Assembly: GCA_963745835.1 (NCBI GenBank)
Contig: CAVUZH010000014.1
Location: 480,001-544,000 of the forward strand
Length of the DNA: 64,000 bases
From: an uncultured delta proteobacterium
GTDB lineage: Bacteria > Desulfobacterota > Binatia > UBA9968
Direction of reading: 5' to 3'
Part shown: positions 11,176-33,801 of the stretch, one piece after another
Position numbering within the stretch: position 1 is the stretch's first letter
Layout: each line of letters opens with the position of its first letter
The notes under the pieces: generated by a model
What the model saw: the letters and a program-made list of their open reading frames with translations, nothing else
Told to the model about the DNA's origin: nothing
Database searches by the model: none
Program-made: the position numbers and the translations under genes

Positions 11176-11262
11176 CTAATCGACCTCCTTGCAATCGTGT
11201 ACAAACGTGAATTTTCGCATGGTTGATATCAGGTTAAAATGCGGAGTCAAGTCAAGCAATTG

Positions 11263-12285: not shown

Positions 12286-12335
12286 GGTGCCTCCGATGAT
12301 AAGTGATGATCTACAGCTTTCTTAATGGATCAAGT

Positions 12336-13346
12336 TTAGCGCAGCTTGAAAATTTCCTTCCAAGCTTTCTCATATTTTGCGTATTGCTTCAGATCCTCAA
12401 CACCCACCGCGTAGATCGCCTGGGGCCGGATCTTTTCCGTGGGTTCGACCTTGGGATGAGCCGGGGTTCTGCCGCCCTGGGCATAGACTTTCTGTCCCTC
12501 TTCCGATGCCGCCCAGCGGTTAAACAGCCAGGCGGTGTTGGGATGCGGCGCATTCTTCATCACCGCAACCGCGATAATGCCGGCGGCGCCTTCTGAGAGC
12601 ATGTAATCGACCGGCGCGCCCTTCTTCTTCCGGGAGGGGTAGTGATGTGAGTAACAGGTGAAACAGGCAGCGGCCTGCCCGGCAACTATAAACTCAGCAA
12701 GCTGCGAGTGCCCTTTGTGAAATTCGACGTTATTAGCGGCAATTTTCGAAAGAATTGCCCGTGCTTTCTCAAAGCTTTTATGCTTGTGCGTCAAGCCGAT
12801 CAAAACTTCGTAATCTCTTGGTTCAGCAATCAGACGGCCTTTCCAGCGCGGATCGGCGAAGTCATCCAGGGTCTTGGGTTCCTCCTCCTTTTTCACCTTT
12901 TCGGTGTTCCAGGCGCCGACAAAAAAGATGAGATTGTTGGCGGTCCAGAATGTCCCTTTCAGATTTGCCGGATACTCTGCGGCTTCCGGCGGCGCCTTTT
13001 CCAAGATCAAGCCCTGAGCGTGGATCTTATTGATGTCTTCGAGCCCGAATTCAACTACGTCGGCGAGAGTTCGGCCGCCTCGTGCTTCGGTGATAGCGCG
13101 GGCTGAAAGCTTGTCGGATGTAGCATCGACGTGGTTGATCCTAATGCCGGGAAAGCGCTTCTCGAAAAGCGGATAGATTTTCTCGGCGTTGATTTGCGCC
13201 AGCGAGCAGTAGCAGTTAAGCACGCCTTCTTCGCTGAGGGCTTTCTTGTAGAGTTCATCAATCGATTCGGTTTGCGCGGCAAAGCCCGGCGAAACCAAGC
13301 CCAACGTTGCCGCTAATAAAATCAATGTGCTAATGGCCGATCGCAT
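12336..13346 (-). CDS. Extracellular solute-binding protein, paralog 2
   Basis: Start MRSAIS after AGGAGG; same motifs; ends IFKLR. Confidence 0.92.
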   Translation of the reverse strand: MRSAISTLILLAATLGLVSPGFAAQTESIDELYKKALSEEGVLNCYCSLAQINAEKIYPLFEKRFPGIRINHVDATSDKLSARAITEARGGRTLADVVEFGLEDINKIHAQGLILEKAPPEAAEYPANLKGTFWTANNLIFFVGAWNTEKVKKEEEPKTLDDFADPRWKGRLIAEPRDYEVLIGLTHKHKSFEKARAILSKIAANNVEFHKGHSQLAEFIVAGQAAACFTCYSHHYPSRKKKGAPVDYMLSEGAAGIIAVAVMKNAPHPNTAWLFNRWAASEEGQKVYAQGGRTPAHPKVEPTEKIRPQAIYAVGVEDLKQYAKYEKAWKEIFKLR

Positions 13347-13443
13347 ATCGCCTCCTCTGCCGCCTTTACGGCCGGCTTTCAAAGTTGCCTGCTATTCAAG
13401 TTCCTGTGAGAACATGGTGTGATCTATAGATGCGAATTCTGAA

Positions 13444-14460
13444 TCACCTTAGCTTAAATATATCTTTCCAGATCTTTTCGTATTTGCTCCAGTTCTTTAG
13501 TTCGTCGGTGCCGATTGGATAGATTTTCGCCGGCCGGATCTTGTCCATGGGCTCGACTTTGGGATGGGGCGGCGTGCGGCCGCCGATGGCGTAGACCTTT
13601 TGCCCTTCCTCGCTGGCGGACCAGCGGGCAAACAACCATGCCGTATTGGGATGGGGACTGTCTTTGGCCACCGCCGTGGCGTTTATTGAAGCGACGCCTT
13701 CGGTCAGCATATATCCTAGAGGCGCGCCTTTTTTGATGCGTGGCGGATAGTGATGGGCATAGCAGGTAAAGCACGCGGCCGCCTGTCCGGCCACCAGAAA
13801 CTCGGCAAGCTGGGAGTGGCCTTTGTGAAACTCTACGTTATTGACGGCGATTTTCTTGAGCAGCGCTATCGCCTTCTCGTCGCTCTTGTACTTGTGATTG
13901 GCAAGACCCATGAGGATCTCAACGTCACGCGGTTCTGCGATGAGCCGGCCCTTCCAGCGCGGATCCGCGAAGTCTTCGAACTGCTTGGGCTCTTCGCCTT
14001 TCTTGACCAGGTTTGTATTCCAGGCTCCCGTAATAAACAACAAATCGGCTGCGATCCAGAAGCTACCCTTCAGATTGTCGGGATAGACCGCCGCTTCGGG
14101 AGGAAGTTTCTCAATAACTAGTTTCTGATCCGCCAGTTGTAAGATATTTTCCAAAGTCATCTGAAAGATATCGGCGGAGACTTTGCCGCCGCGCGCTTCC
14201 GTGATGGCGCGCGCGGCCAGCTTATCGGCAGTGGCGTCAACGTGATTGATCTTCAATCCGGCGAAGCGCTTCTCAAATAAGGGAATGACTTTGGCGGCAT
14301 TGATTTGCGCCAAGGTGCCATAAAAGTTTAGATCCCCGCCTTCTTTGAGCGCCTTCTTGTAGAGGTCATCCAGGCTTTCGGTCTGACCGTTTCCCCAACT
14401 CGGAAAGGCGACGACAACGAAGACTATCCACCAGCTGATTCTATTGAGATTTAAAAACAT
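13444..14460 (-). CDS. Extracellular solute-binding protein, paralog 1
   Basis: Same motifs; ends IFKLR. Confidence 0.92.
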   Translation of the reverse strand: MFLNLNRISWWIVFVVVAFPSWGNGQTESLDDLYKKALKEGGDLNFYGTLAQINAAKVIPLFEKRFAGLKINHVDATADKLAARAITEARGGKVSADIFQMTLENILQLADQKLVIEKLPPEAAVYPDNLKGSFWIAADLLFITGAWNTNLVKKGEEPKQFEDFADPRWKGRLIAEPRDVEILMGLANHKYKSDEKAIALLKKIAVNNVEFHKGHSQLAEFLVAGQAAACFTCYAHHYPPRIKKGAPLGYMLTEGVASINATAVAKDSPHPNTAWLFARWSASEEGQKVYAIGGRTPPHPKVEPMDKIRPAKIYPIGTDELKNWSKYEKIWKDIFKLR

Positions 14461-14510
14461 CGCGCATCCCTCCGTAGTTATCTCTAACGGTACTGGAATA
14501 TCGCCGTGTA

Positions 14511-15587
14511 CTACTTCTTACCGCCCTTCATCGCGGTTTGGAGTTTGCTTTTCAAATCAGGGCTCATACCAAGAAACTCCTGAACCAGTTTGTATATCTC
14601 ATCGCCGAGCATCGGATCGATTTCGAGTTTGCCTTTTTCCGCATCAGCCATGAGTTCTTTGTCCGTGAAAACTTTCGCAAAGGCATTTTCCAGAGCGTGG
14701 GCACGATCGGCGGAGGTTCCTGGCGGAAGAACATACACCTTGCCGAAGTCATTCGGTGTGCTCGTGCCATATTTCATAATCAGCCGTTCTTCATTGGTTT
14801 TGCCGATTTGTGAAATCGTCGGCACGTTGGGAATGATTAGATCCTTGATCGGTTTTTCGGATAACTGCGCCAGCACCAGCCACTCGCCGCTCTTGACCTT
14901 GTCGAATGAAGTTACCTTCGAGGAAGTCCAGGTGTTGAAGAAGCCATCCACCTCGCCGCTGTCAATGGCTAATCTTACGTCGGCGGTTCCTTTGTACCCG
15001 GAAACGACTTTGAGATTCGCGCCTAACACGTCACGGGTCAGTATCGGCGCATGTTCCACGGTCGATCCCGGAATCGCGCCAATACTTACCTGCTTGCTCT
15101 TGGCACCAATCAGATCATCGAATTTAGTGACGCCAGATTTTTTCGTGACGATAAACAAGTAGGTTTCGCTCACCGGCACCGCTAGGTAGCGAAATTTGGC
15201 CATGTCGAACTGGATAGAAGGACTGCCAAAGAGTTGCTCGAGAACAATCGGTCCCGAAATATTGCCGATGACGGTGCCGTCTTTGGGCGCTGCGTTGAAA
15301 GTATGATTCGCCGCGATGATGCTCCCGGCGCCGGGCATATTATCGACGATTACGGCGGGATTCCCGGGAATGTATTTGGACATGTGGCGGGCAATCAGCC
15401 TGGAGTACTGATCGTAGCCGCCGCCGGCGGAAAACCCGACGATGATCCGCACCGTCTTGCCTCGGTAAAAATCGGCAACGGCCTTTTCATCATAGCTTGA
15501 CTTAGCGCCCGGCTGAGCAGCCATAGCGGAACTAGATGAAATCCACAGCGCAAGAAACAGCAGCACAAAAACTTTGGCAAAACTCAT
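14511..15587 (-). CDS. Tripartite tricarboxylate transporter substrate-binding protein (TctC/Bug family)
   Basis: VGFSAGGGYD, NMPGAGS, APKDG, GYKGTAD...GEVDG; alternative start at 15614. Confidence 0.92.
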   Translation of the reverse strand: MSFAKVFVLLFLALWISSSSAMAAQPGAKSSYDEKAVADFYRGKTVRIIVGFSAGGGYDQYSRLIARHMSKYIPGNPAVIVDNMPGAGSIIAANHTFNAAPKDGTVIGNISGPIVLEQLFGSPSIQFDMAKFRYLAVPVSETYLFIVTKKSGVTKFDDLIGAKSKQVSIGAIPGSTVEHAPILTRDVLGANLKVVSGYKGTADVRLAIDSGEVDGFFNTWTSSKVTSFDKVKSGEWLVLAQLSEKPIKDLIIPNVPTISQIGKTNEERLIMKYGTSTPNDFGKVYVLPPGTSADRAHALENAFAKVFTDKELMADAEKGKLEIDPMLGDEIYKLVQEFLGMSPDLKSKLQTAMKGGKK

Positions 15588-15810
15588 GGCAATTTCTTCA
15601 GCCTCCTTCTTCATTCAACCGTTAAATAATTCTTTTCTTCAGTGATTAGACGACAATGGCAGATCCGAGCTTCAGCTTTGGCTTAGCTAAGCTCTTTCTT
15701 TTGTTAAGCGACCGGCCTTTAAGGAGGGTACTTTGAAGCCAAATCTCTTTGCCTGCCGCGCTGATCATAACCCTAAGGCTCCTCTGTAAAACCCGATGAG
15801 TCCAAAACCG

Positions 15811-16779
15811 CTACAGGTGCTCGAGCCGTTTCAGCGTCGCGGCGTAATCAGCAACCGCTTTATCGATCGGATAGTCCGGCTGATACCCGAGCTGTTCTTT
15901 AGATCTCGAGAAATCGCTCGCAAGACGAGATTCGGGGTAAGGCATTGGATTATCGCCTTTGATCAACTCGATCTTGGAGTCGGGAAAATTTTGTTGAATG
16001 GCCGCGATGATCTCCTCACCGCCGACCATCTGACCATTGCCGATGTGAAATAGATCATCCTTGAATTTTCCCTGCGTTACAGCGAGCACTGTTCCCTTAG
16101 CGGCATCCTTACCGTATAAGATTTCGGCAGCGCCATAAGGCCATTTGATTTTCGCCGCTTCACCTTTAAGAGCGGCGCGGATCATTTGCTGAATCGCGAC
16201 TTCTCTGGTCGCTTTGAGGGACACTGGCGACGGACCATAGAGACCGCCGACGTAACGGAGGCAGATGAATTCAAAACCGTATCGTCTGGCGTAAGCCCGG
16301 CCCATGAACTCGCAGCTGGCTTTGGTCGCGGCATAGATCGAGGGCGGGTTTACCGCAATAGATTCATCTATTTTCGCTAAACCTTCGCCGATAGATCCCA
16401 GGTAGACTGTTCCGGAACTTGGGAAGATGATGCGGGAAACCTTTTCCAGGCGCGCCGCTTCGAAGACATTGACCGTTCCCATAAAATTCAGACGCACGCC
16501 GCTATACGGTCGCCGCTGAACTTCCTCGCCTAGAAACGCCGCCAGATGAATAATGCGGTCACAGTCATGGTCGCGCAGCGTGGAGATCAAAGCCGGAAGG
16601 TCCGCCATGTCGCCGCGCACCAAAGTGATTCGGTGGGTATCAACACCGACTGCCGCCAACAGCCGCTCATTGATCGCCACATCAAAAACAACCGGCCGTT
16701 CCCCTCGCTCCAACAACATGCCCACCGCATAGGCTCCCACCAGGCCCGAACCACCGGTGACAAGAATTCCCTTAGCCAT
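15811..16779 (-). CDS. NAD-dependent epimerase/dehydratase
   Basis: TGGSGLVG, IHLAA, YAATK. Confidence 0.9.
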   Translation of the reverse strand: MAKGILVTGGSGLVGAYAVGMLLERGERPVVFDVAINERLLAAVGVDTHRITLVRGDMADLPALISTLRDHDCDRIIHLAAFLGEEVQRRPYSGVRLNFMGTVNVFEAARLEKVSRIIFPSSGTVYLGSIGEGLAKIDESIAVNPPSIYAATKASCEFMGRAYARRYGFEFICLRYVGGLYGPSPVSLKATREVAIQQMIRAALKGEAAKIKWPYGAAEILYGKDAAKGTVLAVTQGKFKDDLFHIGNGQMVGGEEIIAAIQQNFPDSKIELIKGDNPMPYPESRLASDFSRSKEQLGYQPDYPIDKAVADYAATLKRLEHL

Positions 16780-16812
16780 CTTGGCTCCTCCAGGAACTGC
16801 CTCTACTATCTC

Positions 16813-16842
16813 AAACGACTCATTGAGTCAACGTAGTCGTTT
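16813..16842. promoter_or_regulatory. Nested inverted repeats in a divergent intergenic region (possible operator)
   Basis: AAACGACT-N14-AGTCGTTT overlapping GACTCA-T-TGAGTC. Confidence 0.35.
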
Positions 16843-17010
16843 TCGTCAATTTTAACGTCTTTGGTAGCAGTTTTAATAACTTAAAAAGAACCATGAACCG
16901 TCTATGTGCCCCTCATTTCCTAAGACTTTGGTTGGGGAAACCTGGGTGTTTGCTTGATTTCATCAACAGCAAAATGATAGTTATGCGGCGGTTTCAAGGA
17001 GGGTCCAGTC

Positions 17011-18000
17011 ATGGTCACCAAAATGGCTTTGGTTTTAGCCGGATTGCTTTCATTCGTGGTCACGGTTTCGCCCGCCAACGCACAAGAAAAGCTCAGGCTT
17101 GCCTGGGCGGGTTTCAGCCCGACCAATAGCCCGATCTGGGTCATTGAAGATAGGAAGCTTTTACAAAAGATGGGTGTTGAGCCGGAAATCATCGCGATCA
17201 GCGCCAGCCCCACGGTCCTCCAGGCGCTTTTGGCAAACGAGATCGATGCCGCGAGCATTTCTGTTACCACCTTGACCAGCTCACGGCTTCAGGGTGCCGA
17301 CACAGTGATGGTCGTCGGCGTGGTTCCCACTTTTGTCGACCATATTGTTTCACTCTCCAATATCACCAAGGTCGAGCAACTAAAAGGTAAAACCGGCGCG
17401 GTCAATCGTTTAGGCAGCACTTCCGATCTCGGTCTTCGTCTTGCCTTGAGGAAACTCGGCGTCGATCCGGAGAAAGACGTGAAGATCATCCCTGCAGGAG
17501 GCAATCCCGAGCGATTCGCGGCGCTCAGCAAAGGACTGGTTCAGTTTACTATTATGCCGGAGCCGTTCTTAACTCAGGCAGAGAAGCTCGGCTTCCGCAA
17601 CCTTTATAATGTAACCGATCTAAAAATACCCTTCTGGTGGAACGGCATTCTCAGCCGTGAAGCGATCGTTAAGAAAAATCGGCCGCTTCTGCTCAAGCTC
17701 ACCCGGGCCATGGTGGAAGCCATCCACATCATCAAGACCGAGAAGGAGTATGCCAAAGGTCTATTCAAAAAGAATTTAGGCGTTGCCGATCCTGAAGGTT
17801 TGGAAAGAGCCTATCAAGATTACTCCAATGTATTTCCCGAGATTCCGTATCCTCATTCTGAGGGCGTGAAGACCATGCTCGACGATCTCGCGCCGCGCAA
17901 TCCGAAAGCTGCCGCGGCCGATCCCAAGGCATTCGTCGATATGAGTCTGGTCAAAGAGGTGGAGGCGTCTGGTTTGATCAAGCAGCTTTATAAGAAATAA
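17011..18000 (+). CDS. ABC transporter substrate-binding protein (SsuA/NMT1-like)
   Basis: Signal peptide; QLKGKTGAVNRLGSTS, FVDMSLVKEV. Confidence 0.9.
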   Translation: MVTKMALVLAGLLSFVVTVSPANAQEKLRLAWAGFSPTNSPIWVIEDRKLLQKMGVEPEIIAISASPTVLQALLANEIDAASISVTTLTSSRLQGADTVMVVGVVPTFVDHIVSLSNITKVEQLKGKTGAVNRLGSTSDLGLRLALRKLGVDPEKDVKIIPAGGNPERFAALSKGLVQFTIMPEPFLTQAEKLGFRNLYNVTDLKIPFWWNGILSREAIVKKNRPLLLKLTRAMVEAIHIIKTEKEYAKGLFKKNLGVADPEGLERAYQDYSNVFPEIPYPHSEGVKTMLDDLAPRNPKAAAADPKAFVDMSLVKEVEASGLIKQLYKK

Positions 18001-22045: not shown

Positions 22046-22191
22046 CCGCTCTCAACAAGATTTATTGCCGTCAAGTGTCAAAGTAATCTTCGGGAGTTTG
22101 TGCCGGCTAAAAATCTGAGCAGCCTTTCAGTTGCTTGACCGTCAGCGGGTCTGAGGATATTTTGACGGGAATCCAAGTCAAGGAGTTTCAG

Positions 22192-22962
22192 ATGATCGAA
22201 GGACTTAAAGATAAAGTCGTTATCGTCACCGGCGGGGGTCATGGGATCGGCCGGGCTTATTGCCTGGGTTTTGGCGGAGCCGGCGCGAAAGTCGTTGTCG
22301 CAGACATTGATGAACCGGCCTCCGTCAAGGTAGCCAAGGAAGTCAATTCTCAAACCGATGCGCAATCGTTGTCGGTGAAGGTCGATGTTGCCAATGAGGC
22401 CTCGACGCAGGAGATGGTCAGGCTCGCTCTCGATCGCTTCGGCAAAGTCGATATTCTGATCAACAACGCTGCGATCTTCGCAACAATTCCCATGAACCGG
22501 GGCGGTATCGATTCCATCGATCCTGACGAGTGGGACCGAATGATGTCGGTGAATCTCAAAGGCCTCTTCTTTTGCTGTCGCGCCGTGCTGCCGATCATGC
22601 GCAAGCAGAAATCCGGCAAGATCGTCAATATTTCGTCGGGCACAGCATTGAACGGCAGCGCCGGGCGTATTCACTATGTAACGTCGAAGGCCGGCGTGAT
22701 TGGTTTCACGCGAACCCTGGCGCGCGAAGTCGGCGAAGACAACATCAATGTCAATGCCCTCGCGCCGGGCTCAACCCTTTCGGAAGAAAATCCCACCGAA
22801 GAGATTATCAAAATGCGCGGCGCGCGTTTGACCGATCGATGTTTAAAACGAGTGCAGCTACCCAAGGACTTGGTCGGAACCGTTTTGTTTCTATCTTCTC
22901 CTTTGAGCGATTTCATGACCGGCCAAACCGTCGCCGTCGATGGCGGCGTGGCGTTTTTGTAG
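22192..22962 (+). CDS. SDR family oxidoreductase
   Basis: TGGGHGIG, NNAA, YVTSK; AAGGAG RBS before ATG 22192. Confidence 0.93.
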   Translation: MIEGLKDKVVIVTGGGHGIGRAYCLGFGGAGAKVVVADIDEPASVKVAKEVNSQTDAQSLSVKVDVANEASTQEMVRLALDRFGKVDILINNAAIFATIPMNRGGIDSIDPDEWDRMMSVNLKGLFFCCRAVLPIMRKQKSGKIVNISSGTALNGSAGRIHYVTSKAGVIGFTRTLAREVGEDNINVNALAPGSTLSEENPTEEIIKMRGARLTDRCLKRVQLPKDLVGTVLFLSSPLSDFMTGQTVAVDGGVAFL

Positions 22963-22974
22963 GTTTCCATCTCC

Positions 22975-23796
22975 ATGGCCGGTTACCAGCATCGAACTAT
23001 CCGTGTCGGTGACGTCAAGACTCACTTTCTTGAAGCCGGGAGCGGCCCGGATCTGCTGTTGCTTCACGGCGGTGAATACGGCGCATCGGCCGAAATCACC
23101 TGGAAATACAGCATCGAATCGCTAGCGCAGCAGTTTCATGTGGTTGCGCCCGACGTTCTCGGTTGGGGCGAGACCGACAAGATTTACAGCTTTTCCGATC
23201 CGGCCGGCTACCGCATCAGCCATATGAAACGATTTCTGGAAACGATCGGCGTCAGCAAGGCCTACTTCGTCGGCAACTCGGCGGGAGGCGGCTTGATCTT
23301 ACGAGCTTCCGTGCTCGATCCGACGCCATTTCAAATCCGCAAGATGGTCACCATCTGCGGCAACGCCAGCGTGTTCAAAACCCAATCGCAAGCTGATCTG
23401 GAAAACTATACGCCCTCATTGGAGAACATGAAGAAGATCGTCGCACTGCTTTACCATGATCCCAAATGGCAGAGCGAAGAAAATATCCGCGAGCGCTATG
23501 AGAGTTCGATTGTCCCTGGCGCGTGGGAAACGCTCTCGGCAGCGCGCCTGAGAAGCCCGGTGCACCAGGCGCGCTCCAGCACGGAAGAGTTCGTCAAGAA
23601 GCTTTCACAGTTGCGCTTGCCATTACTGATCATGTCCTGCGAACACGATCCGCTGAATCAAAGAGATTGGGACATCAATTTTCAAAAGATCGTTCCCGGT
23701 TCCAGAGTTCATCGCTTCAAGCATTCAGCCCATGAGCCGCAAATCGAGGAGGCCGAGGAATTCAATCGGGTGCTAGCTGAATTCTTGCTTGATTAG
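22975..23796 (+). CDS. Alpha/beta-fold hydrolase (meta-cleavage-product hydrolase-like)
   Basis: LLHGG, nucleophile elbow GNSAGG, catalytic His in SAHEPQIE. Confidence 0.88.
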   Translation: MAGYQHRTIRVGDVKTHFLEAGSGPDLLLLHGGEYGASAEITWKYSIESLAQQFHVVAPDVLGWGETDKIYSFSDPAGYRISHMKRFLETIGVSKAYFVGNSAGGGLILRASVLDPTPFQIRKMVTICGNASVFKTQSQADLENYTPSLENMKKIVALLYHDPKWQSEENIRERYESSIVPGAWETLSAARLRSPVHQARSSTEEFVKKLSQLRLPLLIMSCEHDPLNQRDWDINFQKIVPGSRVHRFKHSAHEPQIEEAEEFNRVLAEFLLD

Positions 23797-24745: not shown

Positions 24746-25706
24746 CTACTGCGAACGGTTCGCATTAAGCTGCAGCGTCTGTTGCAGCGCTTGCTCCAAC
24801 TCTCGCACGGTCACAAGCCCTTCAAACTTCCCCCGGATGATTCCTTCCCCGTCAACTACAAAAATCCACGGCTCGGAGACGAGGCGCCACTCTTCTACAG
24901 TCGGAAAAACCTTTTTGCTGGCGAAGTCCTGCCAGATTTCCTGATGGATAAAGGCAACTCGCTTGTTGTAAGTGGGAAACAACTGCCGAACGATATCGAC
25001 TACCGGGCCGCACATTCGGCTGGTGCAGAACTGCGGGGTGGCGAAGACGATGAGCTGGGGCTTCCGTTGAGCGATGGCCTCCGCGATTCGTACTTGGTGT
25101 AGTCGAGGATCGGGTTTCTGACTGGTATCAATTTGGCGCAGATCACGCACGTCCGAGGCGATCAAATTGCGACTGCGCGGCGCGAGAGTGCCCAAGCCCG
25201 GCGTTTGCGGCGCGCTGGCCACCGTAACCGTGAGACGCGCCGTTGCCAAAGAGCCATTATCATCCCGCGCCTGCAGCTCGATACCCCAAGGACCAGGATG
25301 CGTGAACGTGAGCCGAGTGACATAAAGACCGCGCACCTCGCTTTCGGCACGATGCACGTGCCGTGTGCCGTCAGCATGACGATGCACGCGCCCGCCACTC
25401 TCGCGCAATTTCGACCGGATGATAAAGAGCGTTGGTTTCCGCTATAAGGTTTGGCTTCGGCCCATCGATTGAATAAATCCGAAGTTGAACATCGGCGTTT
25501 TCCAGAAGCTTGTTTGCCTTTGCGAGTCCAAAGGCAAAGCGATTTTCGCCGACGATCAGTTCCGATGTCGTGATTAGCGGTTGCAGATCGTCATTCGATT
25601 CGGCTGCTAACGCTATCCCGAAGTCCGCCGGGTGGCGGTGAATCAAATGGAGACCAGTCAATAGAAGGAGTAACGCGAGGACGCCAGAAAAAATCTCTTT
25701 CATCAC
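24746..25706 (-). CDS. Exported protein with a His-rich loop and C-terminal thioredoxin-like domain (one frameshift near 25407)
   Basis: Two track ORFs (25371-25706, 24746-25408) join when one base is removed: signal peptide, GENRFAFGL, VHRHADGTRHVH, FATPQFCTSRMCGP, SEPWIFVVD. Confidence 0.75.
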
Positions 25707-25828: not shown

Positions 25829-26200
25829 GTATTGCACTGCTAATTGTTTGGCGGAATAACTGATCGGATTCGAATACTGGTCCTGAGCTGCGCTTCTCTA
25901 TAGATGCGACAACACTCCTGCCATCTTCTTCTGGCCTGTCGCTGCACTTAATCTGACCAGAAAAGATCCGAGCGGCGCGGTATCTGTAATGAGCCTGCAA
26001 TCGCGCGCTCCAGGAGGGAGGCCTACGAATGGATTACTTCGCTATATCAAAAGTTAGACCGGGATTGTGGTTGCCACGCGAAATAGTCGCTTGCAACTAC
26101 ACTGTAGCAGTTCCTTGCCCACCCATTAGCAGTAGCAGATGCCACCACAACGACCAGTCTCACTTTGGCCCAGATGGAGAATCATCAAGTCGCCGCATGC

Positions 26201-26488
26201 CTAACGGGTTCGATTGTACTCATAGTCTTCACGTTCGCTCGTGCCCACTCTCAGCTCCGGCGGCATAGTCGGACGAACACTGGTCAATGCGTGCACGTCC
26301 AGAGCTGCCTTGTCGATCCATCGTTCCAGCAGCACCAGTTTGTCGGGATTCACAGCACTTTGAAATACCTCAAACTGTTCACAGCCAGGCTCTTTCATCA
26401 CTTCCGTACAGTACGCCCTATACAGTTGTGCGAGCTCCGCGCCTCTTCCCGGTGCCGCTGCGATAGTTACAATCAGCCTAATTGCCAT
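26201..26488 (-). CDS. Antibiotic biosynthesis monooxygenase (ABM) family protein
   Basis: EPGCEQF, LLERWIDKAALDVH; AGGAGAGG RBS before MAIRL. Confidence 0.88.
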   Translation of the reverse strand: MAIRLIVTIAAAPGRGAELAQLYRAYCTEVMKEPGCEQFEVFQSAVNPDKLVLLERWIDKAALDVHALTSVRPTMPPELRVGTSEREDYEYNRTR

Positions 26489-26611
26489 ATCCTCTCCTCT
26501 TTCCCGGCTTGCCGGTGACGTATAATCTCGCACCGGCGCCGTCGAAACAATCTGCGATCGGAGCAGTGCCACACAATCATGCGGCGGGCGCAAACTGCAC
26601 GTCGCCGCTTC

Positions 26612-27295
26612 TTACGTCCGCTTGGTACCGGCGCGTGCGAACTCGTCCCGTCGTGCGACTGTCGCCTTTAGAAGATGAGCCGGGATGTCTTTCGCGCCAC
26701 CCAGCACTTCGGCGAAAATCGCCATCTGGGCAGCCTCCTCGACGATCAAGTTGGCCCGCGCCGCTGCCGCTGGATCCGCGCCAAAGGCGAGCACCCCATG
26801 ATTTTCCAACAGCACTGCTTTGGTATTAGCCGCACTGCTCAGAGCGGCGGCGATATTGTCCACGGATGCCGCGGAACCTCGGGGGCCATAATGCGCCAGC
26901 GGCACACCGTCAGTCATCTCGGCGCGCACTAGGGCCTCATAGGAGCAGGATAGGGACCGGCTGGCGAGCGCGAAACTGGTGGCGTAAGTGGAATGAGTGT
27001 GCACCACAGCGCCTGTCTCGGGGCGTTGCTTGTACACCACCGCGTGCATGTGGACGATTTCAGCGTTGGTCGGATTGATTGCACCTTCGAGGAGTCGTCC
27101 ATCAAGATCGAGGAGCGCGAGATTCTCGGGATTGAGACTGTCGAACGAACTGGTCGCGGTGAGCAGAATAGTATCGGTGTTCGGCACACGCACGCTGAAG
27201 TTGCCATGATGGCTCATCGAAATCGCGCCGACGCGCACCAGCATATTCGCGCCATCGACAACAGCTTGGCGCAAGGCTAGATGTCCGAGTGTCAT
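26612..27295 (-). CDS. Class II aldolase/adducin family protein
   Basis: GNFSVR, MHAVVY..RP, VHTHS, LLENHG; GAGGAG RBS before MTLGH. Confidence 0.9.
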   Translation of the reverse strand: MTLGHLALRQAVVDGANMLVRVGAISMSHHGNFSVRVPNTDTILLTATSSFDSLNPENLALLDLDGRLLEGAINPTNAEIVHMHAVVYKQRPETGAVVHTHSTYATSFALASRSLSCSYEALVRAEMTDGVPLAHYGPRGSAASVDNIAAALSSAANTKAVLLENHGVLAFGADPAAAARANLIVEEAAQMAIFAEVLGGAKDIPAHLLKATVARRDEFARAGTKRT

Positions 27296-27516
27296 AATTC
27301 CTCCTCTGCTGACCGGAGCATCAACGATTGATGTTGCGGACGAACCGCCGAAGAACGACAAAGTCGATTAAAAGCGCACATAGACTCAGGCGCTACACTG
27401 ATCGTAGATGAACCTTACCTTTGCATTTTCATACGACTATCGGCAGATGTATTTTTCCTACCGTATGAGCGACACCGTAAATAACCTCCACCAGTTCGCA
27501 AGTCGTAACACTAGGC

Positions 27517-28074
27517 TCATTTCTTTGGTTCCAGAAAACTCAGCCGTTCGGCCATCGGTGTCTGTGCAAAAACGTATCCGCACACCTGGCAGGTCCGAAT
27601 CTGTTCGTTGTCGTTAAACTCCTGATAGACGGCCGAAACCTGACTCGGAATATTGCCCTGATTCACGACTCGACTGAGGACCAGTTCGTCGCATCTCTCG
27701 CAGAACCAGGCAAACTCTTCCTTTTCTTCATCACGGCGTTTGCGTTCGATAACCAGGCCCCAGGTGTTTTCATAGCGGCGCGGCGAATGCGGCAGATCGC
27801 CGGGACAAACAAAAATCTCTCCCTGCTTGATCGTAACGACCTCTCGCCTTTCGCCCGGCGGCTTCAAGTGCAGCTCCATGTCGCCTTCGATTTGGTAAAA
27901 AAACTCGTCGCCAGGCTCGATGTGAAAATCGAGCCGAGTATTGGGCCCGCGCAGAATCATCACCAAAAAATCTTTGTGATGGACGATGAGTTGATTGGTT
28001 CTGAACGGAGGGTTGAAAAGGTGCTGATTCTCATCGACCCAGCGCTTTAAATTGAATGTCGAAAGCGTTTCCAT
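27517..28074 (-). CDS. nbaC: 3-hydroxyanthranilate 3,4-dioxygenase
   Basis: GPNTRLDFH..GDEFFYQ.EG, PHSPRR, GLVIERKR and rubredoxin-like CERC...CQVC; alternative GTG start at 28080. Confidence 0.88.
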   Translation of the reverse strand: METLSTFNLKRWVDENQHLFNPPFRTNQLIVHHKDFLVMILRGPNTRLDFHIEPGDEFFYQIEGDMELHLKPPGERREVVTIKQGEIFVCPGDLPHSPRRYENTWGLVIERKRRDEEKEEFAWFCERCDELVLSRVVNQGNIPSQVSAVYQEFNDNEQIRTCQVCGYVFAQTPMAERLSFLEPKK

Positions 28075-28122
28075 CACCACTACTCGAACTCAGGCGGGCG
28101 CAACATAGAGGTAAATGCCAAA

Positions 28123-28902
28123 TCAATGCAGATTTCTTCGCGCGCACTCCCGCGCGACGCCGTCAGTTAGTGCCCACCAAATCGATAAGCCCTTATGCAG
28201 GGCCTTGAGCACTCTGACTTGGAGCTCGTTCGTGGTAGCAAACTGTTCGACGAGCTCATAACCGATATTGCTGTGCTCGGTGTCCGCCTCGCCATGTTCG
28301 GCAAAAAATTCGATGTTGTTCGAACTCAATCCGTAGTGGGTCTTGAAGGCTTTGAAGAATCTGCCGCCGGTCAATTGATTGGAAAACTCATTGCAGCAGT
28401 TGGTCGCCGCCACTTGCTCGAGAATATGATTGCTGCGCAACGCGATATCGATCCAGCCGATCCGCGCTAAAACAGTCGTCGGGAGGAAGTCTTCTTCACG
28501 TTCGCAACGCTCCAATTCCTGCGCGGGAATTCCGATGCTCTCTCCGAAACGGAGAAACAACGCCCGATGGCCGGGCACGGGCCGCGGGCTGCCTTCAAAG
28601 TATTTATAGCCCACCTCTGAGTGAATGATGTCGACGAATTTTTTGTGAATTTCCGGATCGTGAATCCCCGATAACTGGCACCGAACTAGTTTCGCGGTAT
28701 TGATCGCCACGTTGCAAGCAAAAATTCCCCAAGCCTCTTTCGCCCAGATCCTGACCGCGTCTAACGGCAATTTTCCATCGTAAAGGTCCGCATAGAACGG
28801 GTGGTGTAGACGGGCATGCCGATTCTTGACCTCATCGATCAGTACATTACAGAAATCTTCAGTCGGTAAAGTTTCGCCACTGAGCACCATTTCGGCTGAC
28901 AT
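28123..28902 (-). CDS. Heme-oxygenase-like diiron protein (TenA/PqqC/CADD superfamily)
   Basis: HPFY...GKL N-terminus; putative ligands E(HSEVG), H(PGHRAL), E(NEF), H-x3-D-x2-H (EHGEADTEH). Confidence 0.85.
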   Translation of the reverse strand: MSAEMVLSGETLPTEDFCNVLIDEVKNRHARLHHPFYADLYDGKLPLDAVRIWAKEAWGIFACNVAINTAKLVRCQLSGIHDPEIHKKFVDIIHSEVGYKYFEGSPRPVPGHRALFLRFGESIGIPAQELERCEREEDFLPTTVLARIGWIDIALRSNHILEQVAATNCCNEFSNQLTGGRFFKAFKTHYGLSSNNIEFFAEHGEADTEHSNIGYELVEQFATTNELQVRVLKALHKGLSIWWALTDGVARECARRNLH

Positions 28903-28952
28903 CATCACCTCGCTTCATACTTGAAATTCATAAGCTTCTTCACCTTGCGCCT

Positions 28953-29396
28953 TCATTTCAGCGCTAGGCCCTTCTCCCGATTATCGTATTTATATTTATT
29001 TGCATTGCAGGCGATCTCTACGCGATTTCCGTCCGGATCCAGAAAACTAATCGAACGGTTGCCGGCAACTTCCAGTGTCTCCGGGCCGCTGACAATCGGG
29101 ATCTTTCGTCTTTTGAGAACCGGATACAGATCATCGATTTCCTTATTGGAGCCGACATAGATGCAGAAGTGGTGGATTTTGGGAACGCCGTTAGCGCTGA
29201 CTGCTCTAGCCCCTTTTGGCAGCTCCATGAGAGCAATGTCATGATGCTCCCGACCGTAGCTCAAGAAAGTCATCTTCGTCCTGAGATTACGCGCCGACAC
29301 TTTGAGCCCGAGCACAGTACGATAGAATCCCTCTGACTTTTTCAGGTCAGCAACATTGAGGACAATATGCCCGAGCACGCCACTCTTGATCGGCAT
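28953..29396 (-). CDS. VOC family protein (glyoxalase / extradiol dioxygenase-like)
   Basis: LGHIVLNV, EHHDIAL, IHHF, DPDGNRVE; start MPIKS after GAGGA. Confidence 0.9.
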   Translation of the reverse strand: MPIKSGVLGHIVLNVADLKKSEGFYRTVLGLKVSARNLRTKMTFLSYGREHHDIALMELPKGARAVSANGVPKIHHFCIYVGSNKEIDDLYPVLKRRKIPIVSGPETLEVAGNRSISFLDPDGNRVEIACNANKYKYDNREKGLALK

Positions 29397-29696
29397 AGAA
29401 ATCCTCATATTAAGCCCGCTCACGTCTGTCAAGGCGAACGGCTCATCGTAGCAGGCGAACTTGATCAAACTTCCGGACAGCAAGACTCCACGAAACATTA
29501 CCTACGTCATGGAATTTGTTTTGGTAGATGTGCAATGAATGAGGCAACGGATTCCACACAAAGTCAGCTGTGTGACGGATGGGTTCCGGCAAACTGACGC
29601 GGAAGCCAAAGACACGCTTCGACTCCCGCATCAGGTAGAGATCATCACTCAATGCCGATCGTCTGTCGGCCCTGAGGATCACGCTGCGTGGGTGAA

Positions 29697-30122
29697 TTAC
29701 CTCGACGAGCCGGAGCCCTTTTCCACCGTCCCCGTCATCGGGCTCTTCTCCGGCAGCGGCGTTCCGCCACTGCTCCGTTCAGACTTCGATCCACCCACTG
29801 ATTCATTCAGGTCTGGATTTATCGTCTGACCATCTTTTGTCCGCGACTGGCTCGTTCCCTTACTGGTGCCACTAGAACTGGAGTCCTTAGTTGACCCAGG
29901 GCCTTTCTCGACTGTCCCTGTCTGCGGGCTCTTCTCCGGGAGCGGAGTCTGACTGTCGTTACCTGTTCTCTCCGACTGCGAAGCACCGACGGATGGATTA
30001 AGGTCCGGATTCACTTTGCTGTCCCTGCTTTTAGTTTGCGCGAGACCCATTCCAGCATCGGCGGTAATCCAAGCTGCGGTGAGAACAGAAGCGGAAATCG
30101 CTAATAGCCTTTTGGCTTTCAT
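29697..30122 (-). CDS. Secreted Ser/Gly/Thr-rich protein with two copies of a roughly 40-aa repeat
   Basis: Signal peptide, AAGGAGG RBS; NPDLNxSVGxSxSER...TPLPEKSPxTGTVEKG occurs twice. Confidence 0.8.
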   Translation of the reverse strand: MKAKRLLAISASVLTAAWITADAGMGLAQTKSRDSKVNPDLNPSVGASQSERTGNDSQTPLPEKSPQTGTVEKGPGSTKDSSSSGTSKGTSQSRTKDGQTINPDLNESVGGSKSERSSGGTPLPEKSPMTGTVEKGSGSSR

Positions 30123-30159
30123 AAATTAAAACCTCCTTCAAAAGATTACTTTAATCAGC

Positions 30160-30174
30160 GCAATGCGTATGCCA
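30160..30174 (-). promoter_or_regulatory. Sigma54 (-24/-12) promoter
   Basis: TGGCAT-ACGCA-TTGC with exact GG-N10-GC spacing, 37 bp upstream of the ATG at 30122. Confidence 0.7.
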
Positions 30175-30314
30175 CATCGCTAACTGCTAGATTCCGTACC
30201 CATACGTAATTTTGTGTCTTAAGTGCGGGACGAGATAGAAGGCGCTAATTCAGATTTGAGATAGACCAGAGGGATCAGCGTAGTCGTAAAACAAGTCAGC
30301 GCTAGCTAGGCGGA

Positions 30315-31889
30315 TTAGTCATTCAAGCTCGGTTGCTTTATCTGATACTTTCCATCGCCGTCCTGATTGATCCTCCCCTGTTCGTGTAAAGCACCCAAGG
30401 CTGCGGCGATGGCTGGGTAATCAATCTGTGGAAACAGCTCTAACAGTTCGGCAAAAAAGCGATGCGAATTTGTGAGCTCGCTGAGAATTTTTTGCGATAC
30501 GGCTTGCATATCGGAAGGTTCGGCTGGCGCCGCCTGTTTCACGCCGCTATCAAGATAATCTTTCAACTGCACCTTGCCTTGATTGTAGTAAACAATCCGA
30601 TTGTACCGGCTAGCCGGCACATTGTCGGGAATGGTTGCATCGATACCCATCTTCGCCGTAGTCGGAATTTTGCCTGTGGTAGAAGGCGGCAACGATGGGT
30701 CAAGAGGTTTGGAACGAGCATTGGAAACGATCAGGACATCACGATCAGCCTGAACACGCGTGGCCACGGCCCATTCAACGTCGATCGCATCGAATACATC
30801 GATATCATCATCGACTATAGTCACATGTTTGATGTCCGCGATTGCCAGGAGCGCCATAATCGCATTTTTACCATCACCCGGCGATTTCTTGATCGCCGCC
30901 ACGATGTGCCAGTGACAGCATCCCCCGGGCGTTACGTTGATGGCAGTGGCGTGAACGCCGGCTTCGTGAAGCACGCGCCAAGCGGCAGCTTCGTAAATCG
31001 GCGCGCTCATCCAGATGTTTTCCCACGGCATATGCAAAGCATAGTAAATCGGATTTTTACGATGCATGACGGCTTTGATGCGCACTCGCGGATTGAGATG
31101 AATGCCGCCCATTAGCCGGTTGAACTCGCAAAACGGCCCTTCAGGATGAATCCAGCCTTCCGGAAGAATTTCTCCTTCCAAAACGATCTCCGCATCGGCG
31201 ATACACGGCACCGGAATGGTTTCGCCATCGGCGAGCATCAGAGGCTCGCTCCGAAGCCCGCCTGCAAAGGTGAGCTCATTGACACCGAGATTGGCTTTGA
31301 ACGTCGATGCCACCAACTCATAAGGATGCGTGCCGATAGAGATCGATATCGGCAGCGGTTTTTTTTGCTGCAGCGATCGCTCGGCAAACTTTCGCAGATT
31401 ATTGGGCGTTACAATGTCGATGCCGGTAATATCTCTTTCCTTCAGCATTAACCGGTATACTCCCGCGTTCATGCCGAATTCCGGGTCCTCACCGATTACA
31501 ACACCGCCCGTGATCATGGGCCCACCGTCCATAATCGAAAACACCGGCACCGGAAGCTGGAACAGGTTGACGTCCGTACCGGTTCGAACCACTTCCTTCA
31601 CAGCTCCGCGCTGTACTCGTTGTGGTGCAATCGGATGCTCCATGGCTGCGCGCAGCTTGCTTTCGATCTTCTCGTACGGAACTCCCATGGCCAGAGCTAA
31701 CCGGTTGCGCGACTGTAATAACCCGGACGCCACCGGCATTGAGTAACCGCGCACGTTTTGAAACAAAATTGCTTGTTCGGACTGCGGCACCAACGCTGCA
31801 ATGTCACGCGCATCGGTGGCCGTGGTAATCTCGAGCAACTCTCCGTTGATCTTCAATGCTTCAAGATAGCTTCTGAAGGTCGCCGTCAT
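30315..31889 (-). CDS. UbiD family (prFMN-dependent) decarboxylase with C-terminal wHTH-like extension
   Basis: NAGVYR, EGPFCE, VDDDIDVFD..DVEWAVATRVQAD, KMGIDAT; extra tail of about 60 aa. Confidence 0.92.
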   Translation of the reverse strand: MTATFRSYLEALKINGELLEITTATDARDIAALVPQSEQAILFQNVRGYSMPVASGLLQSRNRLALAMGVPYEKIESKLRAAMEHPIAPQRVQRGAVKEVVRTGTDVNLFQLPVPVFSIMDGGPMITGGVVIGEDPEFGMNAGVYRLMLKERDITGIDIVTPNNLRKFAERSLQQKKPLPISISIGTHPYELVASTFKANLGVNELTFAGGLRSEPLMLADGETIPVPCIADAEIVLEGEILPEGWIHPEGPFCEFNRLMGGIHLNPRVRIKAVMHRKNPIYYALHMPWENIWMSAPIYEAAAWRVLHEAGVHATAINVTPGGCCHWHIVAAIKKSPGDGKNAIMALLAIADIKHVTIVDDDIDVFDAIDVEWAVATRVQADRDVLIVSNARSKPLDPSLPPSTTGKIPTTAKMGIDATIPDNVPASRYNRIVYYNQGKVQLKDYLDSGVKQAAPAEPSDMQAVSQKILSELTNSHRFFAELLELFPQIDYPAIAAALGALHEQGRINQDGDGKYQIKQPSLND

Positions 31890-32004
31890 TGTTTCCCCTC
31901 CCTTGGAAGTAAGCCAGCATAGCAAAATAATTGCTATCAATCACCGCATTGGTTTCGGAAGGGTGAGGGCATATGCTATGGAAAGTCAGAAGGAGATTCG
32001 GATT

Positions 32005-33003
32005 ATGGCCTCATTCGGTTTAACTCTGGCGAACCGCGGCGTCATTATCGGCGCCGTTACTGTCCCGGAACTTTTCGAAATGGCGAAACGCGGCGAGGAC
32101 TCAGGCGCATTCGATGCTGTATGGGTGGGTGACAGCTTGCTGGCAAAACCTCGATTGGAATCGATTACGCTATTGTCAGCTCTCGCCGTTGTCACGAAAA
32201 GAGTTCGCTTAGCCGTCGGCTGTATGGCGACATTTCCGCAGCGTCATCCGGCTTTGCTTGCGCAGCAATGGGCCAGTTTGGATGTCATTTCAGCCGGCCG
32301 CGCCTGGTTGGCCGTATGTTTGGGCGGTCCCAACGAGCAGAGTCCGGCGCAAGCTCTCGAGCACCGGGTGATGGGGATCAAGGACACTGAGCGCGTTGGC
32401 CGATTAGAGGAGGGCATCACCATCCTGCGCAAGCTCTTCCACGAAGAAAACGCCTCGCACAAGGGGCGGTTCTATGAATTCGAAGGCGTAACGATTCAAC
32501 CGCGCCCGGTGCAAAACCCACTGCCGATCTGGATTGCCAGCAATCCCACCGGCCTGACCTGGAAAGACGGCGCCAGCGCGCCTTCGCCCGCGGTGGAACG
32601 CGGTTTACGGCGCGTGGCAAAATTTGCCGACGGGTGGATGACCAACAAAGTCACCCCCGAAGAATTTAAATCTCAATGGCAGCGAATTCTGGAGATGGCC
32701 AAAGAAGAAGGCCGCGATCCGTCCAAGATCGGCAGCTCGCTATACCATAACATCAACATCAAAGAAGACCGCCAAGTAGCGCTAAATGAAAGCAAAGCCT
32801 TTCTCGACAAGTACTATACGTCGAACTTCAGCATGAAGTTCGTCGAAGGCTTCACCACCGCAGGCACTCCGAAGCAGTGCATCGAAGAGCTTAAAGCTTA
32901 TTTCGCCGCCGGCATTGAGCACATCACCTTGAGAATGACCTCCTGGGACCAGACCGGACAAATGAAGCGTTTCCTTGAAGAAGTAGCGCCGGCCTTTCAT
33001 TAA
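32005..33003 (+). CDS. LLM class flavin-dependent oxidoreductase
   Basis: FDAVWVGDSL, LDVISAGR, PRPVQ..PIWI, ADGW; AAGGAG RBS. Confidence 0.92.
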   Translation: MASFGLTLANRGVIIGAVTVPELFEMAKRGEDSGAFDAVWVGDSLLAKPRLESITLLSALAVVTKRVRLAVGCMATFPQRHPALLAQQWASLDVISAGRAWLAVCLGGPNEQSPAQALEHRVMGIKDTERVGRLEEGITILRKLFHEENASHKGRFYEFEGVTIQPRPVQNPLPIWIASNPTGLTWKDGASAPSPAVERGLRRVAKFADGWMTNKVTPEEFKSQWQRILEMAKEEGRDPSKIGSSLYHNINIKEDRQVALNESKAFLDKYYTSNFSMKFVEGFTTAGTPKQCIEELKAYFAAGIEHITLRMTSWDQTGQMKRFLEEVAPAFH

Positions 33004-33020
33004 TCAGCGAGCTTGAAACT

Positions 33021-33801
33021 ATGTTTCTGGAAATCGATCATCTGGTAATTGTCGTGAAAGATCTTCAGCAGGCGGCCAATGACTACCAACAGTTAGGCTT
33101 CACAGGAGTTCCCGGCGGCAAACATCCTGTGGGCAGCCATAACGTGCTGATCTCGTTTGCCGATGGATCCTATCTCGAGGTGATCGCATTTTATCGTGAG
33201 GCGATCGATCATCGCTGGTGGCAGCCGTTACAAAAAGGCGAACGGTTGGTCGATTATTGCATGCAGACCGATGATCTTCAGGGCGATACTCTGAAACTGC
33301 GCGAAGCCGGAGTTGCGATAAATGACCCGGTGCCCTGGTCGCGTACTCGCCCCGATGGCTACGAATTGAAATGGATACTTTCTCTGGCGACGGGTGCGCA
33401 TCGGGGTGTAGCGCCGTTTCTGATCCAGGACGTAACGCCACGTACCGAGCGCATTCCCCAACAGTTCGACCACAAAAACGGCGCCGTTGGAATCAACACC
33501 GTCACGATAGCCGTCGATGAGCTGTCGCAAGTTGACCGCTGGTATAGCGCGGTGCTGGGGCAGAGTGGCAAGCCGATTGTCCGAACAGAACTTGGAGCCG
33601 AAGGTTTGAGTTTTTCTATCGGTACAACATACCGTAGAATTTCTCAAGCCATCGAATGCATCGAGTCCGCTGATAAACTGGATAAGCACCTATGGACCAT
33701 CCCCCTACTCCGCCACTCTCTGGAGTCGTGTCGCTGAGGCTAAGCCATTGGAGCAAAGTTTAACGCACGGCGCTAATCTATATTTCGACGGCGCAGAATG
33801 A
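33021..33801 (+). CDS. VOC family protein (Glyoxalase_3-like), frameshift near 33627
   Basis: IDHLVIVV, GGKHP.GSHN, YLEVI, RTRPDG..LKW, PFLIQD; removing one A gives HTVEFLKP...FDGAE-stop at 33799-33801. Confidence 0.85.

Follow-up and report, generated by a model that had tools for sequence, protein, structure and literature searches.

A conserved oxygenase module of soil Binatia as a candidate kynurenine-independent source of substrate for 3-hydroxyanthranilate 3,4-dioxygenase

Where does a ring-cleaving dioxygenase obtain its substrate when the pathway that usually makes it appears to be missing? This question is raised by three genes in a stretch of 64,000 nucleotides (the window; positions 480,001 to 544,000 of contig CAVUZH010000014.1, here G000:C14:480001-544000) from the 97% complete genome, G000, of an uncultured member of the Binatia. 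The genes are co-directional on the minus strand and encode, in order of transcription, a VOC-superfamily metalloprotein (VOC, 28953..29396), a heme-oxygenase-like dimetal oxidase (HDO, 28123..28908) and a class-A 3-hydroxyanthranilate 3,4-dioxygenase (HAO, 27517..28080). In the map of open reading frames (ORFs) they are separated by 44 and 42 bp, close to the spacing of about 50 bp given in an initial annotation of the sequence. The VOC frame is open to 29498, and its start was set at the Met at 29396, where its orthologues begin and where the initial annotation also ends the trio, giving a protein of 147 amino acids. We tentatively favour the answer, which we rate at somewhat less than an even chance, that the HDO makes the o-aminophenol substrate of HAO from an arylamine of non-kynurenine origin, mainly for assimilation or salvage, and that the quinolinate formed can feed NadC.

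The locus was compared with 41 related genomes of the same order, which belong to three families (f1, f2 and f3, the last with 11 genomes). Protein families were assigned by Pfam and NCBIfam profile scans with curated cut-offs. Gene order was followed in 11 loci of relatives and in 42 further public loci, with neighbours counted only where the sequence left at least 1400 bp of room on the HAO side or at least 2000 bp on the VOC side. Two unpublished genomes, G012 and G018, are included in the 41-genome tallies of HDO, NadA, HAO, NadC, VOC and kynureninase; locus L012 comes from the former, L067 and one HDO-less locus come from the latter, and no conclusion rests on these two genomes alone.

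The HAO of the trio scored 186.3 bits on TIGR03037 (NCBIfam cut-off 145.95) and 145.5 bits on PF06052 (Pfam cut-off 25; 1.3e-42), fell slightly under the cut-off of a second HAO equivalog model, NF009763 (200.2 vs 220 bits), and matched solved HAOs of mammals, yeast and bacteria with E values of 1e-30 to 1e-34. Residues R49, H53, E59, H98, R102 and E112 show no variation among 13 class-A and related sequences and align with identical residues of the solved HAOs; C127, C130, C164 and C167 are invariant in the same 13 sequences. We take H/E/H to be the iron ligands, Arg/Arg/Glu the substrate contacts and the four cysteines a rubredoxin-like site; the iron ligands and Cys4 site that the initial annotation had read from this one protein are thus constant across the class-A orthologues. 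G000 carries five HAO-family matches, of which the trio's copy is the most canonical, and two other HAO classes have lost R102 and the EFFYQ motif. Judged in this way, the enzyme is a canonical 3-hydroxyanthranilate 3,4-dioxygenase, predicted to convert 3-hydroxyanthranilate (3-HAA) to 2-amino-3-carboxymuconate semialdehyde (ACMS). Separately, other HAO paralogues (loci L015 and L016) were seen to adjoin genes for UbiD, a Mo-hydroxylase, Amidohydro_2 and NMT1-like binding proteins, and a second HAO paralogue, at G000:C14:53065-53530, looks split into overlapping ORFs, through either an assembly indel error or a real pseudogene.

The middle protein matched PF14518 Haem_oxygenas_2 (1.1e-14) and PF03070 TENA/THI-4/PQQC (1.1e-10). 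Its AF2/AlphaFold model is all-helical (pLDDT 94.9, pTM 0.92), and a Foldseek search with this model placed PqqC first (TM 0.81, 248 columns) and CADD next (E 1e-8), followed by UndA, BesC, FlcD and HrmI, with a probability of 1.00 for all six; going by the model, the protein has the seven-helix heme-oxygenase-like fold. The E..H..E..H-x3-D-x2-H diiron set claimed for it at the outset is complete: E98, H114, E174, H205, D209 and H212, three histidines and three carboxylates, are invariant in 14 orthologues, as are C77, C171, C172 and many arginines. In a set of 41 HDO sequences that includes relatives at 22-32% identity, H114 and H212 are still invariant and E98, E174 and H205 are each kept in at least 90%. 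A loop of 14 residues lies between the first Glu and His ligands.

This family stands by itself. A search of 5.8 billion proteins gave 141 relatives, of which the best 120, at 68-97% identity, all come from metagenome-assembled genomes (MAGs) labelled Binatia, Binatota, Deltaproteobacteria, Zixibacteria or Eisenbacteria; among the matches listed, members of the family are 68-98% identical and proteins outside the family reach 36% at most. Among 1.84 billion representatives clustered at 50% identity, with 234 proteins at E<=0.001, it is represented by one full-length cluster and some fragments; beyond these, full-length relatives come at 36% and 31% identity. A search of the ESM Atlas returned only generic iron-containing-redox-enzyme and PqqC clusters. 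HDO paralogues as such are common, with 19 HDO-family matches in G000 and some in every one of the 41 genomes, and the clade of the trio is almost confined to MAGs labelled Binatia. It did not cluster with a characterised family and, by its sequence, is a new isolated clade of putative PqqC/CADD-like dimetal oxidases, apart from CADD, PqqC and TenA.

The nearest solved relatives, PqqC and, by sequence, a 4-aminobenzoate (pABA) synthase (9pj4, E 1.9e-9, about 20% identity), bring up the possibility that the module makes a cofactor or secondary metabolite, such as a quinone like pyrroloquinoline quinone, a pABA-like arylamine formed by self-sacrifice, or a natural product derived from hydroxyanthranilate. 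JGI pipelines do annotate the HDO family as PqqC, and the characterised HDOs are mostly found in natural-product pathways, according to the portion of a 2026 review consulted here (PMC13108848). The HDO, however, scored only 51.9 bits on the PqqC model TIGR02111 (cut-off 240) and 48.2 bits on the CADD model TIGR04305 (cut-off 200), and no non-ribosomal peptide synthetase, polyketide synthase or tailoring genes occur among the neighbours scanned. The JGI name is a mis-annotation, since no PqqE was found above cut-off in G000; an identity as PqqC was rejected on the same ground and on the profile score, and no pqq gene appeared in the neighbours scanned. As for pABA, its synthases sacrifice one Tyr and one Lys (Tyr25 and Lys159 in NePabS), as described in the part of PMC11965152 used here. 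In the sequence alignment to the 9pj4 match, Tyr25 maps to Y39 of the HDO and Lys159 to about R183. Y39 is the Tyr of the CADD 'H.FY' motif that the initial annotation had pointed out, and it is indeed present in this protein (HPFY), but four of the 14 orthologues have L, V, V or F there, and the position equivalent to the Lys is Arg in 10 of the 14. Since neither sacrificial position is conserved, CADD-type self-sacrifice was rejected, and the HDO is therefore expected to act on a free substrate. A cofactor or metabolite product is, on balance, very improbable.

In the relatives' loci HAO lies 3′ of HDO in 11 of 11 and VOC lies 5′ of it in 10 of 11, the eleventh being ended by a contig edge. 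Among the public loci with enough room, HAO is co-directional and downstream of HDO in 34 of 35 (exception L033) and VOC is upstream in 33 of 35 (exceptions L054 and L057), with HDO-HAO gaps as small as 7-13 bp (L059, L025, L056). HDO orthologues of at least 74% identity were found in 16 of the 41 relatives and, with one more at a contig edge, in 17. The order tolerates insertions. A gene for an NMT1/SsuA-like solute-binding protein sometimes lies between VOC and HDO, with binding-protein insertions in the operon in at least 10 loci, and in some loci a 23S-IVP-like protein, a second HDO or an isochorismatase-family hydrolase is encoded between HDO and HAO. The second HDO subfamily, 31% identical to the first, has a similar association: in G002 (L017, G002:C239 4305-14596) its gene overlaps that of a second class-A-type HAO by 4 bp, in a cluster that also has TctC-TctA-TctB, an ornithine cyclodeaminase/mu-crystallin gene and four Amidohydro_2 genes, and in L037 it sits between the first HDO and HAO, so that both HDOs precede HAO. 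The arrangement of the trio is far beyond chance, and the three genes form a conserved oxygenase module of soil Binatia. Contigs from soil RNA libraries, from relatives of 90-97% similarity, span aldolase-HAO-part of HDO and HAO-HDO-VOC. These bridging contigs fit co-transcription, as weak evidence, given that a single transcript is not provable from contigs and DNA carry-over is possible. A structure prediction for a complex of HAO and HDO gave a score of 0.00, which carries no weight for or against.

The next question is whether the host could make 3-HAA in the usual way. No kynureninase scored above cut-off in any of the 41 genomes (best score 23.7 bits) and TDO was absent from the 5 genomes searched, in line with the initial claim, made for the window, that no kynurenine route is present; kynB, KMO and nbaA/B were not searched for. 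The order-wide lack of kynureninase therefore indicates a non-kynurenine source for the HAO substrate. The genes of NAD synthesis in the host, whose inspection the initial annotation had called for, are also incomplete. NadA was found in 6 of the 41 genomes by a search that recovered it from 12 of 14 reference genomes, had no match in G000, and NadB was above cut-off in none of 5 genomes. NadC, which uses quinolinate, was above cut-off in 30 of the 41, including G000 and all genomes of f1 and f2, and in none of the 11 genomes of f3. Its gene in G000 lies in the housekeeping context valS-nadC-birA-coaX-fusA. Of the 30 genomes with NadC, 26 have a class-A HAO, a number that rises to 28 if a partial copy and a split copy are counted; the 11 f3 genomes, which lack NadC, have no class-A copy. 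From these gene inventories, a kynurenine-independent source of 3-HAA is necessary, and a role in quinolinate supply plausible. As a side observation on the nadC locus, the adjacent valS (L013 7309-10064) appears split into overlapping ORFs, by an assembly indel error or as a real pseudogene.

These inventories suggest a bolder alternative, that the trio is a dedicated quinolinate and NAD route independent of both kynurenine and aspartate, in which the HDO, with or without VOC, would turn a primary metabolite such as anthranilate into 3-HAA, HAO would give ACMS that closes to quinolinate, and NadC would pass this into NAD in place of the missing NadA/NadB steps. Such a route, dependent on O2, would be a third natural one for de novo synthesis, the part of PMC8097395 consulted describing only two; VOC might help with a rearrangement or with closing the ring to quinolinate. 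The distributions of NadA, NadB, NadC, kynureninase and class-A HAO fit such a route, as do the lack of an ACMS decarboxylase gene beside HAO and the strong conservation of all three proteins. The co-occurrence of HAO and NadC is, however, confounded by phylogeny, and class-A HAO is kept in five of the six NadA-bearing genomes. G015, a 100% complete genome of the same family, has NadC and a PncB-like gene, but neither NadA nor any HAO-family gene; it has either an orphan NadC working on imported quinolinate or yet another quinolinate source. PncB-like NAPRTase is present in all 5 genomes tested, so salvage is possible. HDO itself occurs in just 17 of the 41 genomes; NadC without NadA is found in 24 genomes, of which 15 carry HDO. 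No nadC gene lies in any of the fetched loci around the trio or HAO, and an Rfam scan of 26000-32500 at E<=1 gave one chance-level sRNA match and no NAD or other riboswitch. The f3 genomes (within G026-G040, for example L018) are instructive: all 11 have a very canonical HAO of another class (250-260 bits on TIGR03037), and none has NadC, NadA or kynureninase, so that HAOs in this order also serve other roles. Taken with the catabolic type of the neighbouring genes described below, these points make a dedicated NAD route rather unlikely. Of the quinolinate purpose suggested initially, the presence of NadC and the frequent lack of NadA remain; the NadA-bearing genomes that keep HAO, G015, the PncB-like salvage enzyme and the catabolic neighbours do not go with it. 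At the f3 HAO locus 8 of 10 ORFs are without a family, and ORF picks there are probably poor; an HDO paralogue was noticed at a constant 11-15 kb from HAO in at least nine f3 genomes.

We return to the reading that we prefer, in which the HDO supplies HAO with an aminophenol made from another arylamine. The HDO would most likely catalyse an O2-dependent oxygenation of a free aromatic amine or acid, with anthranilate as the simplest candidate, either by hydroxylation at ring C3 or by N-hydroxylation followed by rearrangement, in both cases giving 3-HAA. HAO would then open the ring to ACMS, which would close to quinolinate, as no ACMS decarboxylase is encoded alongside. The primary role would be assimilation or salvage of aminoaromatic compounds, with quinolinate for NadC as a side benefit, and VOC may act as an accessory metal enzyme, a second ring-cleaving dioxygenase or an isomerase. 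This reading is supported by the canonical HAO, its tight coupling to HDO, the isolated and conserved HDO family, the missing usual routes, the lack of an ACMS decarboxylase gene nearby, and signs of assimilation, namely the binding-protein insertions, the kinds of neighbouring genes and the many Amidohydro_2, HDO-family and HAO-family matches in G000.

Several points weigh against it. The most direct is that 10 relatives have a class-A HAO without HDO. These loci read VOC-HAO (G025, G018, G027), VOC-isochorismatase-HAO (G029), isochorismatase-HAO (G013, G033), VOC-binding protein-HAO (G011), binding protein-HAO (G017), UbiD-VOC-HAO (G016) and HAO-PNPOx (G021). A maximum-likelihood tree built from 60 HAO rows (49 distinct) has HDO-less loci interspersed with HDO-bearing ones inside the class-A clade, which implies repeated loss or gain of HDO. 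HDO is accessory, and dispensable, to the HAO locus; it is therefore not a universal supplier of substrate, and another source must serve these relatives. The functions of HDO, HAO and VOC are moreover all predictions, and we infer which substrate the module uses, how its steps follow each other and what it does for the cell, including that the HDO acts upstream of HAO in the pathway rather than after it or elsewhere. The direction of flow matters here, as the many invariant Arg and Lys residues of the HDO, and its match to PqqC, which has a tricarboxylate product, could equally fit a polycarboxylate such as the product of HAO. Among the HDOs named in the review PMC13108848, as far as a few search terms in part of its text reach, there is no aromatic hydroxylase. 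ACMS decarboxylase and semialdehyde dehydrogenase, the partners of HAO in the classical catabolic 3-HAA pathway, are not encoded beside it, and the sets of neighbours vary by genus: the racemase-like, amidase and DUF1003 genes found in other genera are without orthologues in G000. The initial proposal, that the diiron enzyme feeds HAO independently of kynurenine, is thus backed by gene order and the lack of kynureninase, and loses ground on the accessory status of HDO, on the direction of flow and on its CADD-like reaction, which is unlikely. As a separate observation on one of the HDO-less loci, that of G029 (L064 7430-8719, minus strand), an IS481-like transposase lies between a glucose-6-phosphate dehydrogenase gene and the VOC-isochorismatase-HAO operon.

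What VOC does bears on a further alternative. The protein matched PF00903 Glyoxalase (Pfam, 7.4e-17), its best NCBIfam match is the C-terminal half of catechol 2,3-dioxygenase (53.9 bits, cut-off 320), and its matches to solved structures are weak and mixed. H10, E50-H51-H52-D53, H75-H76, E106 and E127 are invariant in 15 orthologues, a His/Glu pattern that presumably corresponds to the His/His/Glu catalytic domain of type I extradiol dioxygenases; from this pattern VOC looks like a one-domain extradiol dioxygenase. Orthologues occur in 21 of the 41 relatives, and the 5.8-billion-protein search gave 1098 clusters, far more than for HDO.

The genes around the trio have, overall, the flavour of aromatic catabolism, as far as family assignments tell. 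A class II aldolase/adducin-family gene (26612..27361, minus strand; PF00596, 1.5e-35) follows HAO co-directionally; it occupies this place only in same-genus loci and L045, a link at the level of the genus. It is followed 18 bp further on by a gene for an ABM-fold (antibiotic biosynthesis monooxygenase-like) protein (26201..26593, minus strand; PF03992, 5.4e-13). Upstream of the trio lies a UbiD-family (de)carboxylase (30315..31940, minus strand; 285.5 bits on TIGR00148, above cut-off), found there in 13 loci, and, divergent from it, genes for a luciferase-like (F420/FMN-type) oxidoreductase and a Glyoxalase_3 protein (31903..33737, plus strand; PF00296, 3.6e-47, and PF13468, 4.5e-40), a block that recurs with UbiD in 10-11 loci. 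Convergent with the trio are a short-chain dehydrogenase/reductase (SDR, 22135..22962, plus strand) and an HsaD/BphD-like alpha/beta hydrolase (22975..23796, plus strand), a pair with 81-83% identity to the copies of L025. Clusters of SDR and HsaD/BphD-like hydrolase genes are the most constant neighbours of HAO loci, in 18 and 16 loci. In other genera an Asp/Glu-racemase-family gene, a three-subunit xanthine-dehydrogenase-type Mo-hydroxylase and a metallo-beta-lactamase-fold gene recur, along with a PNPOx-like flavoprotein, an amidase, DUF1003, binding proteins and the convergent hydrolase and SDR. In G000 the trio still has the hydrolase-SDR pair next to it, and the Mo-hydroxylase is on another contig. 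Near the trio the window has no gene of the Amidohydro_2 (ACMS-decarboxylase) type, although the whole genome has 94 Amidohydro_2 matches (E<=1e-20).

Such surroundings could mean that the three enzymes are simply neighbours on a catabolic island and do not feed each other. VOC, SDR and hydrolase would then constitute a meta-cleavage set resembling bphBCD and acting on a catechol, HAO would cleave imported 3-HAA or an analogue, and the HDO would oxidise another intermediate or a product downstream of HAO. The extradiol-like His/His/Glu and EHHD pattern of VOC, the constancy of the SDR and hydrolase genes, the flanking Mo-hydroxylase, amidase and racemase-like genes of other genera, and the HDO-less loci in which HAO is accompanied by VOC alone, by an amidohydrolase or by a binding protein all agree with this. 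Yet the HDO family was not seen away from HAO (34 of 35 loci), each of two HDO subfamilies is coupled to class-A-type HAOs, which is hard to explain if they share no substrate chain, and the SDR-hydrolase pair is on the opposite strand. We consider this arrangement improbable, and the coupling of HDO to HAO leads us back to a shared pathway as our tentative choice.

Two more specific pathways were considered and rejected as the function of the trio. A full nicotinate/maleamate-type pathway (Mo-hydroxylase, hydroxylase, ring cleavage, deformylase, amidase, maleate isomerase) can be mapped on the L025-type neighbourhood; it was dismissed because G000 is without the racemase-like, amidase and DUF1003 orthologues and has its Mo-hydroxylase on another contig. 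A natural route resembling the engineered C3N pathway, by way of the isochorismatase-family neighbour, was dismissed because this protein matches biuret hydrolase, RutB and carbamoylsarcosine amidases, with no PhzD or EntB entry among the matches listed.

The remaining features of the locus are of less consequence. Between the UbiD and VOC genes lies a gene for a small Ser/Thr/Gly-rich repetitive protein (29697..30122, minus strand) of 141 amino acids, whose N-terminal segment is hydrophobic and which contains a long Ser/Thr/Gly-rich repeat twice. Neither Pfam nor NCBIfam has a family for it, it occurs only at loci of the same genus, and contigs from soil RNA libraries covered it in 4 of 4 runs. 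A scan of the locus for promoters and terminators gave counts no higher than in shuffled sequence. A thioredoxin-like neighbour of about 318 amino acids (window 24746-25706, minus strand) appears split into 111 and 220 amino acids by an assembly indel or as a pseudogene. Downstream of the locus, at window 10150-18000, there is a series of genes for solute-binding proteins (three SBP_bac_1/8, one TctC-like and one NMT1-like); in the ORFs scanned, no gene for a permease or an ATPase was noticed.

The interest of the module lies in the organisms that carry it. An order of abundant uncultured soil bacteria has canonical HAO, NadC in two of three families, no kynureninase and mostly no NadA; as HAO is kept under these conditions, something undescribed must supply 3-HAA. 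The HDO clade is a concrete, clonable candidate for the missing step, and it has no characterised close relative. Even if the role proves to be catabolic, the HDO superfamily would gain a new type of reaction, or a known reaction a new type of enzyme, and the finding would correct a widespread mis-annotation as PqqC. The initial annotation knew of no operon composed of VOC, HDO and HAO, and the literature searched bears this out: 3-hydroxyanthranilate was not found in combination with PqqC, HDO or iron-containing-redox-enzyme (supplements of HDO surveys were not covered), and no link between Binatia and NAD synthesis was found among the matches listed. A term search in part of the 2026 HDO review (PMC13108848) gave no quinolin-, NAD or aminophenol, and anthranil- just in the title of a reference on anthranilate 1,2-dioxygenase.

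Among known systems, the bacterial kynurenine pathway (TDO, formamidase, KMO, kynureninase, HAO) shares its last enzyme and product with the scheme proposed here, and NadC is present to use that product. It differs in its upstream part, of which kynureninase and TDO were not found as described above, KMO and formamidase not having been searched for. CADD and NePabS resemble the HDO in the helical fold, in the H-x3-D-x2-H motif with upstream Glu and His ligands and in arylamine chemistry, and give its best sequence match among solved structures. The HDO is set apart from them by the low identity of about 20%, by the unconserved sacrificial residues, by its 14-residue loop and by its place beside HAO rather than folate genes. 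PqqC is the top structural match and has PF03070 in common with the HDO, but is metal-free, while six metal-ligand residues are kept in the HDO family.

The closest parallel for the pairing itself is SznF, in which an HDO and a mononuclear-iron cupin act successively on one nitrogen-bearing substrate, according to the portion of PMC13108848 consulted. As there, an HDO is paired with a cupin, and here the HDO gene directly precedes the cupin (HAO) gene. SznF, however, is a single protein with both as domains, and its cupin acts by rearranging an N-hydroxylated arginine, whereas the trio has separate proteins and its cupin is a canonical HAO that keeps every 3-HAA-binding residue; the Foldseek ranking also places the HDO nearer to PqqC and CADD than to the N-oxygenases. 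Routes to 3-HAA that bypass kynurenine have precedents as well. In 2-nitrobenzoate degradation the reductase NbaA and the mutase NbaB give 3-HAA for the dioxygenase NbaC, and in Geobacillus a flavin-dependent anthranilate 3-hydroxylase gives 3-HAA. An engineered chorismate pathway, C3N, can carry all NAD synthesis, as stated in the part of PMC8097395 used here. All three routes deliver 3-HAA to an NbaC-type HAO without the breakdown of tryptophan, as we propose for the Binatia, but none of them uses an HDO.

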